Below, in pieces: positions 17,460 through 63,782 of a stretch of DNA of 64,000 bases. Source of the stretch: Octopus vulgaris (lineage: Eukaryota); contig OX597814.1 in assembly GCA_951406725.2 (NCBI GenBank), forward strand, positions 108,314,001-108,378,000, read 5' to 3'. Positions within the stretch are counted from its first letter, which is position 1. Each line of letters opens with the position of its first letter. Made by a program: the position numbers and the translations under genes. Under the pieces are notes generated by a model, which did no database searches, was not told the origin of the DNA, and worked only from the letters and a program-made list of their open reading frames with translations.

Positions 17460-17495
17460 CTTTTACGTTTCGAGCCTAAGCTCTTCTACAGAAAG
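17460..17495 (-). ncRNA. Minimal type-I hammerhead ribozyme (A6U core variant) in a short Penelope-like tail element (about 17361-17555)
   Basis: Minus strand: cttt CTGTAGA a GAGC ttag GCTC GAAA cg TA aaag. Confidence 0.6.
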
Positions 17496-18621
17496 GAACA
17501 TAGAAAAAACAAGGAGAGAAAAAAATGTGTATAATGGCTAACGATCTATCATGGCATATATTATATATATATATAAACACACACATACATATACACAATA
17601 TACTAATTACTGCTATTATCAGTAATAACATGTACATACTGATGTAGTTTTTTGGTTTCACACCCTAAGACAACGTCGGCCATGTTTGCGACGAAGGGAA
17701 ACAACTCGTAACATGGTAACAACAAAGTTATTGAAATGAATTCTTAATAAATACTCTATTTTTACAATTAATTAATTAATTAATTACCCATCATTAAACT
17801 TCACGACCATTTTCACTTGTAATCTATTCAAAGGTAGGATTCGTTGTACAATGGCCAACAGTACTTTAACCCACCCGTGCCATTGCTCAATATACCACAA
17901 TTATTTAACATATATAACTACATTATATTACAAAATATAACACTAAATTAAACAAATTGAATAGTTACAAAAAGAACTTTATAAAATCAGCTGAAAATAA
18001 AATTCTTAAATACACACAAAAATCTCACACAGTTATTTAAATATACAGAAATGAATTGAAATATAAAATGCAAATGGCATAATTATTCACGAAGTCATAC
18101 ATGCATCTTGAGCAAGAGTCTTCTAATTATAGCTTCTGTAGCTTCGAGCTGATCGAGTGGATTTGGTAGACGTTAACTGAAAGAAGCCTAGCTCCTGTCA
18201 AAACCGTCCAATCCACACCAGCATGAAAAACGGACGTTAAATTATGATGGTGTCTCACCCCTACCTGACAACCGGTGCTGATGTGTTTACATCCCTCTAC
18301 ACTGATAGAATAAAAAAAATCTATTACTCGAGTCGATTCATTGACTAAAAATTCGAGGCTGTACTCCAGCATGGCCGTAGTCTAATGAGTGAAACATCTG
18401 TTAATTACTTGTAGGGATTCGACAGTAAACCCTAAAATCAACTCGCTTAAGCTGATAAATACAAGGAACCTGTGAGAATACAATGAGTGTGTTATTAAAT
18501 AAGAATTAAAGAGATTTTACTAGAAATGTTTTGAGTTGTGACTCAATTAAAATTTCCTTTATCATCAAATTGAATGAGAGATGCCAAAAGTGAGGCTGAT
18601 TCAAACTTGAGCTCCATTTAA

Positions 18622-18842
18622 CCCTTTAGCATTTAAACCGGCCATATCCGGCCAAAAATATTCTACCTATTTTATGTTCAAACTGGCCAGATCTGGTCTC
18701 TCACACCAACCCTACAATATTGTTTTAAAAATTAACAGCTACCTCATCAAAATCTCATGGCTACAAGATGATGAATGATTAGTTCAAAACAATGTGGATG
18801 AAGAAGCATTAATTTTGGCAGAATAATGTGAACACTAAAGGG
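18622..18842. mobile_element. piggyBac-like MITE
   Basis: ttaa|ccctttag...ctaaaggg|ttaa. Confidence 0.8.
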
Positions 18843-20008
18843 TTAAGTAAAGCTTCTAAAGAAGACACTTTCAAAAACCTGAAGAAGTGAATTAAACCAA
18901 AGCCAGAAATTTTAACAACATGCCTATGATTTAAAAAGAAAATGAACCACAAGAAAAGTGAAGCAACTTTAAAAAAGCTAGAGGCAGTCAACCTTAACAT
19001 AAGATGCAAAGATAAACGTAACTGTAGTTTTAATAATGTTTAACAATTTTAAACCTCAAGATTGGGATTCATTTTAACAGCTTCTTAACAGTTTTAGATT
19101 TAGAGTGTAGAAACTACAATCTACTTTATAGTCAAGAGCAAAAGATATACAAATTTCAAATTAACCAAGCAGCTAGATTTAAGCTAATTCTCTACCAAAC
19201 TATTACATGGAAAAAGATGGGTCTATTATTGATGTAGGGCTCAGAGATTCCATATATTTTGGCTTTGGATTCAATGATGATGGTTTTTACAAAGATGATA
19301 GACAAAACAAATGCCATGTAACTTAGAATGTCTTGTAGTTTACTTATTCTAATATATGCAATGAGATTAAGTAAGCTGATTTAATAAAAAGTCAGTGTTG
19401 ATCAAGTCTCAATTACTTTGAACAGTCCTGGTTAAATAATTCAGGCAAAATTGAGCTTCATTATCTTAGAGCAACAGAACATTTGGTCCTCTTAGTTTTT
19501 ACATTCCTTCAGAAAGGGAGTTTTATCAAATTAAAACTGGATGCTTTTCCTACAGTTAAACCACCCCCAAAACTCCACCATGGGGCCCCAATTAAATGAC
19601 TGAAGTACAACTGGGGTCAACAGTCTTCTAGCAGAGCCAATGAGCTTCTCTGCAACAGGGAAATACTTCCACCACCAAGCAATGGAATGAAATGAAAAAC
19701 CTTCACAAAATCCATCAATAACAACAGGTTTTTAAATTATAATTTGGCAAAGAAGGAAATGTCCATGAAGATCAACATCATCCAGATTACAAGCTTTGAT
19801 ATGTACAAAGTCTGTTTGTCACCAGATGACAGGATTTCAAATGGTACCCCAATGTGTAGAGAGTGTGAAGAATCTTCAACATTTTCTCTGAAGTTAAGAC
19901 TTAGAACACATAAGAGCCATGATTTAAATTAAAGCAACAGAGCAAACTGGTGGAATATTATTAATTGAATCTTCCTTAACTTTCTTTTGGTAAAAAGATT
20001 CGGTAAAG

Positions 20009-20227
20009 CAGTGGTTCTAAACCATGTTTTTTTTATCCAGACCCATCTGATTCCTACTTTACTTGGGTGGACACTCATACCCAGTCAATTTTTTAAAAAA
20101 TCCTATTGTATTTTTGACTGGGAATTGTATAAAAAGACAATTGTTAAAATATTTTGAGCATTACACAAATTTTTAACAACAAAATATAATATGAACCACA
20201 CGGGTTAAAAGGACCCGAGAACCACTG
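20009..20227. mobile_element. Old hAT (Charlie-like) MITE
   Basis: TIRs cagtggttct / agaaccactg; TSD is degenerate. Confidence 0.65.
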
Positions 20228-61168: not shown

Positions 61169-62052
61169 TATATATATATATATATATATATATATATATA
61201 TATATATAAAAAAATACAAACTGGGACAAGAACGCAAAACATTTAGAAGACGATACAAAAAACACGGACGGGACATTCGAAGCCTTCAATCTTCAGTCAA
61301 GAACCGGATCATCCTCGCAATTTCGGCTGATTAATCTTATATATATATTGTGTCATTTCAAGTAAAAGATAAAAGATAAATGGTGCACCGATGACTCTCG
61401 AGGGAGACACCCCCATTTTGATGATCTTTTCAGTTTGTATGACACACCTCGGGTTCACGTCTTTCACCATCTTCGAAATTACATGAACACCCTCTCCATA
61501 CACATAGATTCTCTCTTGACATTTCTGTATTCAGAGGAAAAGAGTAATTGAGACCAGTTTCTGCCACTTGACTTTCATCTTCTCATCTGGTTTTTCAGGT
61601 TTACGGTCAACGTAGCGATGTCAACTGTGAATGTTGCCATTTATTGGGTGATGAGGGCATTTCGACATTTTAGTCTGTCAACATTTCTTTGGTTTTGAAG
61701 AGTTCGAACACTCCAGATTCCAATGGTGAAAGGAGCTGTCCGAATTCTTGAAGGGTTGTTATGACTACAACATGGATACCTCACTAGAAGTTGTTATCAA
61801 GGGGAAGTGAAGAAAAACTACTTTTTCAATCACCTTCTCCTTATCCACCATTCGCTACATTTACCCTTTTCAACCTATCCAATCTCTTACAGTTGTCACC
61901 TACTCTTCCTTACTTCCCCCACTTATCATCCTTCAGCATTTGTGCATTCATTATATTCACCCCTCACCCATTATCCCTCTCACTCTACCATACACTCTTG
62001 TAACCTCAACCCTCCCATCTTCTCTGCAACCATTCACTCCGACTCACTTCAT

Positions 62053-62287
62053 ACCTATTTCTTTACTACTCACAAGGGGCTAAACACAGAGAGGACAAAC
62101 AAGGACAGACAAACGGATTAAGTCGATTATATCGAACCCAGTACGTAACTGGTACTTAATTTATCGACCCCAAAAGGATGAAAGGCAAAGTCGACCTCGA
62201 CGGAATTTGAACTCAGAACGTAACGGCAGATGAAATACGGCTACGCATTTCGCCCGGCGTGCTAACGTTTCTGCCAGCTCGCCGCCT
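62053..62287 (-). mobile_element. Young full-length tRNA-derived SINE
   Basis: Near-consensus copy of the dominant family. Confidence 0.85.
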
Positions 62288-63250
62288 TCTTACCCTCAGG
62301 GTATACACCGATGCCTCATCACCACTACTTTTATTTCTTCCTCGATCCACCCCGATCCCTCCTAACCCTCTTTGGTATTCCCTGTTGTGGATTCTTCCTT
62401 AGCATATAAATTTCAATCCTTTTCCTAATTAGCGCTCCTGGTACTGGCACTCCGTCGGTCGTGACGACGAGGGCTCCAGCTGATCAGATCAATGGAACAT
62501 CCTGCTCATAGAATTAATGTGCGAGTGGCTGAGTACTCCACAGACATGCGTACCCTTAACGTAGTTCTCAGGGAGATTTAGCGTGACACGGAATATGACA
62601 AAGCTGGCTCCTTTGAATCACAGGTACGACTAATATTTGCCAGCAGAGTCGGCCGGAGCAAACGGGAAATAAAGTGTCTTGCTCAAGGACACGATGTTCG
62701 ACCAGGAATGGAAATCACGACCTTACGATTGTAAGCTGAGTACCCCTATCCACTGAGCCACGCACCTTCCGTGCTCCTAGGTGTCACTGAAGTAGCAAAC
62801 TAATCCAAGAACTGCCTCCGACTTTCATATTTTCGCAGTTGAAAATGTCGAATCGTTTCGGCTTCAGTGAACCGTGACGGGTTGAGAATTTGGATATTTT
62901 CGCTTGTACTTGTTTCAGACTGCGGCCATGCTGGGGCATCGCCTTAAAGGGTTTTAGTCGAATGAATCGATCGCAGTACTTAATTTTTTGTAAAGTTAAT
63001 ACTTATTCTATCGGTCTTTTTTGCCGAACCGCTAGATTACGGGGACGTAATCACACCAATACCGGTTGTCAAGCGGTTGAGGGGGAAGAAACACAGACAC
63101 AAAGACACAGATATATATGTGTGTATATTATATATATATATATATATATATCAACAATTGAGGGTAAAATTAATTAGTTATTAATCAATTTCACCAAGTA
63201 GTGTTCAGTATGTAAAAGGACCATTTAAGGCGAATTCAAAATATTATATT

Positions 63251-63782
63251 ATATAATTAGGGCTTAGTAAAGTAAATTACTTTGCCACATACTGAACTTT
63301 CTAGAAATAGCAGCCAAAAAGTTTTTTAGCCATTTCCACCACTTTAAGAAAATTTCTCTCAGATAATGTTTACTCATAAATAACTCACGAAGGTATGGAG
63401 GTAAAAACAGAAAAATATCACAAGTACAAAGATCATTTTGTTAGTACTGGCAGTCTGAGCGTGTTCGTCTGAGGTGATACGTCGCCGAAGGGTATGTTCT
63501 TCCTTTTAGTGCTTCCAAATCCAAATTAAGAAATGTTGAGCTGACGAAAGAAATGCTGAGTTTATTTGGCTAATCTAGAAACGTTAACGTTCTCAAATGA
63601 TCTTTGTACTTGTGATATTTTTCTGTTTTTACCTCCATACCTTCGTGAGTTATTTATGAGTAAACATTATCTGAGAGAAATTTTCTTAAAGTGGTGGAAA
63701 TGGCTAAAAAACATTTTGGCTGCTATTTCTAGAAAGTTCAGTATGTGGCAAAGTAATTTACTTTACTAAGCCCTAATTATAT
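63251..63782. repeat. Inverted repeat, about 190-bp arms and about 155-bp loop (Penelope-like fold-back)
   Basis: 63251-63438 is the near-perfect reverse complement of 63595-63782. Confidence 0.9.
63536..63596 (+). ncRNA. Type-I hammerhead ribozyme with an imperfect stem II
   Basis: ttgag CTGACGA aag...cta GAAA cgttaacg TT ctcaa. Confidence 0.65.

Follow-up and report, generated by a model that had tools for sequence, protein, structure and literature searches.

Six hammerhead motifs in one octopus window

We analyzed a 64,000-nucleotide stretch of Octopus vulgaris DNA (assembly GCA_951406725.2, contig OX597814.1, forward-strand positions 108,314,001 to 108,378,000), hereafter the window, for hammerhead ribozymes of the kind carried by Penelope-like elements (PLEs). 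Six motifs (sites 1 to 6) lie in it, exactly where an earlier sequence-only reading had placed them, each interval being delimited by the outermost bases of the inner stem I, and they are real rather than chance matches. All are hammerheads of the minimal type-I form known from PLEs, as their topology had been described, with the cut-site base H17 at 17464(-), 40148(+), 41170(-), 53851(+), 55180(+), and 63591(+), respectively. The palindromic stem III noticed in five cases was found at sites 1, 3, 4, 5, and 6, where the letters from A15.1 to U16.1 read ACGT, AATT, ACAGCTGT, ACACGTGT, and ACGTTAACGT; at site 2 the palindrome is disrupted (ATGT). Sites 1 and 2 match each other at 79.6% over 191 bp, and self-comparison of the window revealed no match among sites 3, 4, 5, and 6. 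The motifs thus represent five families, in agreement with the five unrelated elements first proposed: F12 (sites 1 and 2), F3, F4, F5, and F6 (sites 3 to 6).

The description of five motifs as intact was overstated, since a canonical core together with a stem II of at least 3 bp is present only at site 5, the one fully canonical copy. In sites 4 and 6, an A.A mismatch occupies the base of stem II. Position 11.1 of site 4 is A, whereas 28 of 30 F4 copies have U there and 2 have A. Helix I of site 3 consists of 3 + 3 bp flanking a 4-nucleotide bulge. Table 1 lists the motifs with the copies that carry them, most of which we interpret as ends of the PLE pseudo-long terminal repeat (pLTR).

A descriptor requiring the canonical core and a stem II of at least 3 bp matched the window once (site 5), compared with 0.05 matches on average in 20 shuffles, and without the stem II requirement it matched three times against 0.2. 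The strict descriptor was widened to U6 and U3-A8 cores after the families had been seen; in this form it gave 3 matches versus 0.15 in the window and 18 versus 0.4 (10 shuffles) in 441,100 bases of flanking sequence from the same genome (401 de-duplicated segments), an enrichment of about 40-fold. The 18 matches comprise eight F12 copies, two F3 copies (one being site 3 itself), and eight unrelated singletons. Chance matching within AT-rich repeats might be argued from loose descriptors, which match up to five times per shuffled window, and from an Rfam scan of the window in which no hammerhead family appears among 139 matches up to E = 10. The flank count nevertheless refutes this explanation, unless the shuffle control is inadequate. 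Further, family majority sequences carry the fold, the U3-A8 pair covaries, and the location in PLE ends matches the published pattern, which leaves chance a negligible probability.

The eight singletons lie in the flanks of loci L010, L102, L097, L127, L026, L115, L079, and L003. Their stems and palindromes are mutually unrelated, and three of the eight have a U3-A8 core.

Table 1. Hammerhead motifs and the element copies that carry them (window coordinates)
Feature	Position	Strand	Description
F12a, 5'-truncated pLTR end of a PLE (probable)	17348..17554	-	between (TA)n tracts; 83% to long copy L100
Site 1, minimal hammerhead	17460..17495	-	core CUGUAGA (A6U, family-wide); stems I and II 4 bp; stem III ACGT
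F12b subfamily, 375-bp period unit	39856..40251	+	same 21-bp tail at start and end
Site 2, minimal hammerhead, decayed copy	40117..40152	+	core CCGUCGA; palindrome broken
F3, short pLTR copy	41023..41213	-	starts 44 nt upstream of cut site, the commonest F3 5' end
Site 3, minimal hammerhead	41164..41210	-	U3-A8 covariant core UUGAAAA; stem II 5 bp; stem III AATT
Inverted 5'-truncated F3 arm	41214..41315	+	self-comparison and family copies
F4, 5'-truncated pLTR end (probable)	53723..54070 (3' limit approximate)	+	parent Hydra-like endonuclease ~2.1 kb upstream
Site 4, hammerhead	53733..53854	+	canonical core; long stem II; stem III ACAGCTGT
Inverted 5'-truncated F5 arm	55031..55079	-	self-comparison and family copies
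F5, 5'-truncated pLTR end (probable)	55080..55225	+	parent reverse transcriptase (YRDD), CxCx5C linker, and Hydra-like endonuclease ~1.8 kb upstream
Site 5, hammerhead	55094..55184	+	canonical core CUGAAGA; stem II base 7 bp; stem III ACACGTGT
F6, inverted 5'-truncated arm	63143..63438	-	outer end in (TA)n; 97.6%
F6, partial copy of 566-bp head-to-tail unit without open reading frame	63437..63789	+	ends in (TA)n
Site 6, hammerhead	63536..63596	+	canonical core CUGACGA; weak stem II; stem III ACGTTAACGT; H17 = U

Five families and their parent elements

Family copies were sought in 2.8 Gb of the same genome (227 contigs), with 40 candidates scored and 30 loci fetched per family search; the copy samples are the best 30 matches of each search, not random draws. 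The searches returned 937 to 2,483 first-look candidates per family, which, together with the eight unrelated flank motifs, bears out the diverse and abundant population originally suggested. Close copies are 94 to 99% identical in F3, F5, and F6 and 86 to 95% identical in F4 and F12, and differ within families mainly by scattered single changes. The majority cores are CUGAAGA in F5, CUGACGA in F4 and F6, UUGAAAA in F3, and CUGUCGA in F12, so that the majorities of F4, F5, and F6 carry the core CUGANGA...GAAA...UH and that of F3 its U3-A8 variant. Core conservation across copies, a check proposed with the sequence-only reading, is evident in these four families: the ten core letters agree with those of the majority sequence in 27/30 copies of both F5 and F6, 26/30 of F3, and 23/30 of F4. 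Stems I and II pair and stem III is palindromic in the majorities of F3, F4, F5, and F12. Copies end at fixed 3' positions that lead into (TA)n, in line with the proximity to (TA)n noted before, with two such end points each in F3 and F6; their 5' ends are ragged. An inverted copy of the element's own 3' part adjoins sites 3, 5, and 6. At one locus (L155:2657-3591), an F5 copy sits at (TA)n tracts with an F12 copy on either side, suggesting that the families insert into one another's microsatellites.

A tblastn search of the window with five PLE peptides found no PLE open reading frame (ORF) remnant, as expected from the lack of a recognizable reverse transcriptase (RT) or GIY-YIG ORF reported for it. 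Longer copies elsewhere in the genome supplied remnants of PLEs ending in the same tails. Among 19 long stretches fetched, four families (F12, F3, F5, and F4) run collinearly into RT and/or GIY-YIG remnants upstream, consisting of RT parts and an endonuclease in F12, F3, and F5 and of an endonuclease in F4. Three long F12 copies (L102, L113, and L151) have RT (YIDD) and GIY-YIG-type remnants upstream, and in L151, L152, L095, and L097 an RT (YIDD), a CX4CxxC linker, and a GIY-YIG-type endonuclease lie upstream on the same strand. The F12 endonuclease motifs are Neptune/Nematis-like, and a weak tblastn link (27 to 29% identity) connects the family to an RVT_1-positive ORF. The long F3 copy L202 carries an RT thumb and GIY-YIG region ~640 bp upstream of the ribozyme, with a C-terminal GIY-YIG domain (PF01541, E = 2.5e-6), and an inverted F3 arm adjoins the truncated end of this copy; the final codons of the ORF remnant recur in L203. 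In F5, copies L199 and L200 stay collinear all the way from the ribozyme to the endonuclease, where they match at 88.6%, and L199 carries an RT (YRDD) and a CxCx5C linker. In F4, an endonuclease of the F5 type lies ~2.1 kb upstream in copy L153, and in L201 the F4-type endonuclease is joined in one arm to the 3' half of the F4 ribozyme. By linker and zinc-finger motif, not by a tree, F12 and F3 appear to be Neptune/Nematis-like and F4 and F5 Hydra-like. Because the ORF remnants lie upstream in longer copies, sites 1, 3, 4, and 5 are interpreted as 5'-truncated pLTR ends. An RT beside F4 in L207, similar to the frame in L206 described below, was not used as evidence for F4.

For F6, unlike the other four families, no RT or GIY-YIG remnant was found. 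Its head-to-tail unit of ~566 bp (554 to 569) forms dimers at four loci, and in two of them (L157 and L158, independent loci with units of 564 to 566 bp) the longest stop-free frame is 68 codons. F6 is a non-autonomous derivative, and the 375-bp unit at site 2 (F12b) is probably another. F12b has an 11-bp direct repeat resembling a target site duplication (39844-39854 and 40244-40254), and some of its upstream sequence recurs in L092, L093, L094, and L104. The label of non-autonomous PLE or retrozyme families thus fits F6 and the site 2 subfamily but not F12a, F3, F4, and F5, and tandem units without ORFs, as in retrozymes, were found for F6 only among F6, F3, F4, F5, and F12a.

Spread of all five families as independent, retrozyme-like elements via small self-cleaved circular RNAs would account for the F6 tandem units at four loci, for the 9 of 30 F6 copies that reach at least 290 nt upstream of the cut into the tail of the preceding unit, for the 375-bp period at site 2, and for a sharp common 5' end in F3; yet four families run into ORF remnants, tandem multimers larger than dimers were not seen in the fetched loci, the units and ribozymes are unlike those of classical retrozymes (RNAs of ~170 to 400 nt with classical type I hammerheads), and 5' ends do not coincide with the cut site. 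We regard this explanation as very unlikely.

A 605-amino-acid RT/endonuclease frame (RVT_1, E = 6.6e-8) joined inverted to F6 in L206 was rejected as the F6 parent: F6 is near 0 of 19 other copies of the 3' end of this element, and the shared motif is only 9 to 10 bp. The frame belongs to a young (98 to 99%) and abundant PLE family (L206:5630-7819 (-) and loci L250-L269) in which it is unbroken over 605 codons. All 20 of 20 copies of this family share a single end point in (TA)n, and no hammerhead was seen by eye in its 3' end. CACGTG, possibly a promoter element, occurs in this 3' end, in the F12b spacer (window 39884-39889), and in the F6 spacer (L157:4050-4058).

Copy ends, proposed insertion route, and folding

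For end mapping, copies were chosen by sequence downstream of the cut only, which avoids bias, and in F3 the window's own copy was dropped. Nearly half of the F3 copies (14/29) start 40 to 45 nt before the cut, where helix I has its outer edge; 2/29 extend further upstream and 13/29 start within the ribozyme, with 1/29 within 2 nt of the cut. Neighboring partner copies start in the same six bases in 9 of 20 cases. The F6 ends are spread, with no wall and 0/30 within 2 nt of the cut, in a sample that includes three near-identical C31 pairs. In F12, 12 of 24 incidental copies form a loose cluster of 5' ends at -89 to -102, well upstream of the ribozyme, and for F4 and F5 only incidental copies (3 and 1), not an unbiased sample, are at hand. 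A wall at the ribozyme edge is seen in F3 only, and no pile-up of 5' ends at the cut site was found in the F3 and F6 samples.

Since upstream junctions differ among F3 copies, the F3 wall is a discrete end, and the template likely carried an uncut ribozyme. PLE transcription start sites lie within the pLTR according to the accessible text of PMC8557442, and by analogy the F3 wall likely reflects such a start; a strong RT stop could also produce it. A donor-like GTGAGT lies ~40 nt downstream of the F3 cut site (window 41127-41132, minus strand); the same text describes a 5' untranslated region intron starting in the pLTR of PLEs.

We propose an insertion route drawn from published PLE work, as far as the consulted parts of PMC11167929 and PMC8557442 describe it. 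The PLE protein would nick AT-rich DNA and start cDNA synthesis at internal RNA sites 45 to 235 nt downstream of the ribozyme; synthesis would then end prematurely or continue off the 5' end of the RNA, and the inverted arm would result from priming on both strands. For F6 and F12b, the PLE protein would be supplied in trans. Together, internal starts, extension on both strands, and early stops would account for the short ends that carry a ribozyme, for the double 3' end points, and for the inverted arms. Two ribozymes within a tandem parent transcript are predicted to pair via their palindromic stem III and to undergo cleavage as a dimer, perhaps assisted by protein, and solo copies would not cleave. 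Cleavage is likely not needed for insertion. The rarity of ends near the cut agrees with the finding, in the portion of PMC11167929 available, that cleavage is dispensable in vitro.

The predicted minimum free energy structure of a site 5 dimer is the two-copy hammerhead fold (-46.1 versus -34.6 kcal/mol for two monomers), and at site 4 this fold is predicted in part. With their inverted arms, sites 3 and 5 are predicted to form long hairpins that bury the ribozyme, as the arm at site 6 would also do. Given such burial, the window copies are likely inert, most of them probably inactive stubs.

On this evidence, the six motifs are very probably minimal type-I hammerheads in short copies of five PLE families, likely 5'-truncated and often inverted pLTR ends laid down by the elements' own RT and GIY-YIG nuclease, with most window copies likely inactive. 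Several results weigh against this interpretation. A complete pLTR-ORF-pLTR parent was not found among the 19 long stretches of a non-exhaustive search, and every parent ORF of the four families is a broken remnant. The F3 link consists of one long copy plus ~50 bp in a second. Pfam searches with F12, F4, and F5 peptides, including five short ORF remnants, returned nothing, so these three families are identified through motifs and weak tblastn links. Compensatory changes among copies of one family were not demonstrated. Finally, at sites 1, 2, 3, and 6 the predicted minimum free energy dimer is not a hammerhead fold, and the AATT self-duplex is predicted to be unfavorable (+2.2 kcal/mol).

Variant cores and relation to known elements

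F12, the family of sites 1 and 2, largely lacks the canonical A at core position 6. The base is U in 94 of the 100 matches listed and in 35/41 copies selected by tail, and among 2,611 copies with exact 34-base patterns A6 occurs in 58 and another base in 2,553. Three fetched copies with different upstream sequence retain CUGAUGA. U6 is common to several F12 subfamilies that differ at positions 7 and 17 and upstream, with stems and GAAA fixed. In 41 copies, column conservation is 0.965 in the ribozyme and 0.942 downstream (p = 0.025, with columns that are not independent), a marginal excess that was not counted as evidence of selection. Because this conservation comes without a sign of selection, a dead F12 ribozyme appears about as likely as an active variant. 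The sections of PMC3088659 and PMC7151607 that were consulted describe A6C as a natural hammerhead variant with low activity in Mg2+ that stays active in Mn2+, and a literature search judged at title level found no report of a natural A6U hammerhead.

The ribozymes of F12 and of the site 6 subfamily may therefore be dead or weak, kept as relics or as a structural part of the pLTR, to which we give somewhat less than an even chance. The prevalence of a non-A base in F12, the strong loss of Mg2+ cleavage reported for A6C, and the F12 ribozyme columns that are barely better kept than those downstream favor it, as does F6, in which the close copies have A.A at the stem II base (30/30) and U17 whereas a second subfamily, found in public contigs, has U at 11.1 and A17; against this stand the persistence of U6 across diverged F12 subfamilies with unchanged stems and GAAA, and the Mn2+ activity of A6C, in cited tests that concern A6C and not A6U. 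Such relics can coexist with the PLE-end interpretation preferred here.

The closest published counterparts are the minimal hammerheads of metazoan PLE pLTRs in PMC4209133, which in the portion consulted share with those described here the type I form, an extra base between A9 and stem II, a palindromic or absent loop III, the U3-A8 variant, many families per genome, and mostly solo motifs with opposite-strand pairs 100 to 700 bp apart. That source also reports thousands of solo copies per genome, and its molluscan supplement examples share short stem III letters. The octopus motifs differ in that stem II (64 to 97 nt) and the palindromes (8 to 10 nt) are longer than its consensus, that an A6U core dominating a family was not met in the text consulted, and that its supplement text, searched except for one file, holds no Octopus entry. 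The initial impression that these families are undescribed appears to hold for the families, and not for the motif class, the solo copies, or the opposite-strand pairs, which were published in 2014 (PMC4209133). This is not the discovery of a new element class but a real feature of known kind in new families and a new host. Literature searches turned up no report of PLE hammerheads in cephalopods; supplements were only partly searchable, and the families or variants may already be in print. Octopus repeat papers list Penelope-like families, and the word ribozyme is absent from the main text examined.

In the parts of PMC8557442 available, insertion units of endonuclease-bearing PLEs (Neptune/Nematis and Hydra) are likewise truncated at the 5' end, flanked by an adjacent inverted copy, optionally tailed, inserted preferentially at (TA)n, and fixed at the 3' end. 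The linkers described there correspond as well, CX2-5CxxC with CCHH to those of F12 and F3, and CxCX5C without CCHH to that of F5, with the F4 endonuclease of the same type. The tails differ in length (~55 nt in F3 and ~100 nt in F6 versus 30 to 40), and the cephalopod entries in the best 4 of 6 occurrences in the supplement are Naiads. Named relatives of a PLE protein from this genome are mostly bivalve or mollusc-associated records. PAc, a Poseidon PLE of Anolis, likewise shows two 3' end points that correspond to internal RT starts, a template RNA that is not cleaved, and no ends at the cut site, as far as PMC11167929 was consulted; its ORF starts inside the ribozyme, whereas ORF starts were not located here. 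F6 and F12b resemble non-LTR retrozymes (PMC7229834; bioRxiv 10.64898/2026.07.22.740005, each consulted in part) as permuted, ribozyme-bearing units without ORFs, which is expected if retrozymes are non-autonomous PLE derivatives. F6 is set apart by its 566-bp unit, seen here in DNA as monomers, dimers, and inverted pairs, and by a ribozyme of the minimal and not the classical form. Dimer cleavage and the view of retrozymes as PLE derivatives are treated in accessible sections of PMC6765202, PMC7229834, and the bioRxiv report.

Other features of the window were recorded alongside the motifs. A 1,191-codon stop-free frame (12799-16374, minus strand) encodes several C2H2-like zinc fingers and is reminiscent of MEP-1-type proteins; no Pfam match was above the cut-off, and the frame is probably a large host exon. 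Site 1 lies ~1 kb upstream on the same strand and so may be intronic and co-transcribed. Fold-back repeats with 81 to 93% arms (5788-6353, 47402-47575, and 52985-53102) failed the hammerhead descriptor and are possibly further inverted insertions or miniature inverted-repeat transposable elements. A local multi-copy duplication occupies 56513-61338 (blocks up to 800 bp, 88 to 95% identity). tRNA-like heads of short interspersed nuclear elements (54758-54805 and 55444-55500) and ~15 copies of a 150- to 250-bp repeat (for example, 40428-40650 and 62048-62288) account for a large part of the window.

The role of hammerheads in PLEs is called unclear in the passages of PMC8557442 and PMC11167929 consulted. 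Since thousands of A6U copies have spread and the F3 template apparently ran off uncut at the upstream edge of the ribozyme, we tentatively propose, while regarding it as doubtful, that the octopus PLE hammerheads serve something besides template cutting: the fold might mark or protect the 5' end of the transcript, or U6 might be an undescribed active variant that needs protein or Mn2+. Extrapolating the density in the flanks (17 independent strict motifs per 441 kb) to the whole genome would give a total of the order of 100,000 motifs, a figure that is likely too high because insertion flanks are probably enriched. The genome offers a natural comparison of canonical, U3-A8, A6U, and stem-II-weakened ribozymes, all in amplified families; F6 provides a 566-bp unit without ORFs that stands between PLE and retrozyme, and F3 copies preserve a discrete template end that coincides with the ribozyme's upstream edge and not with the cut.

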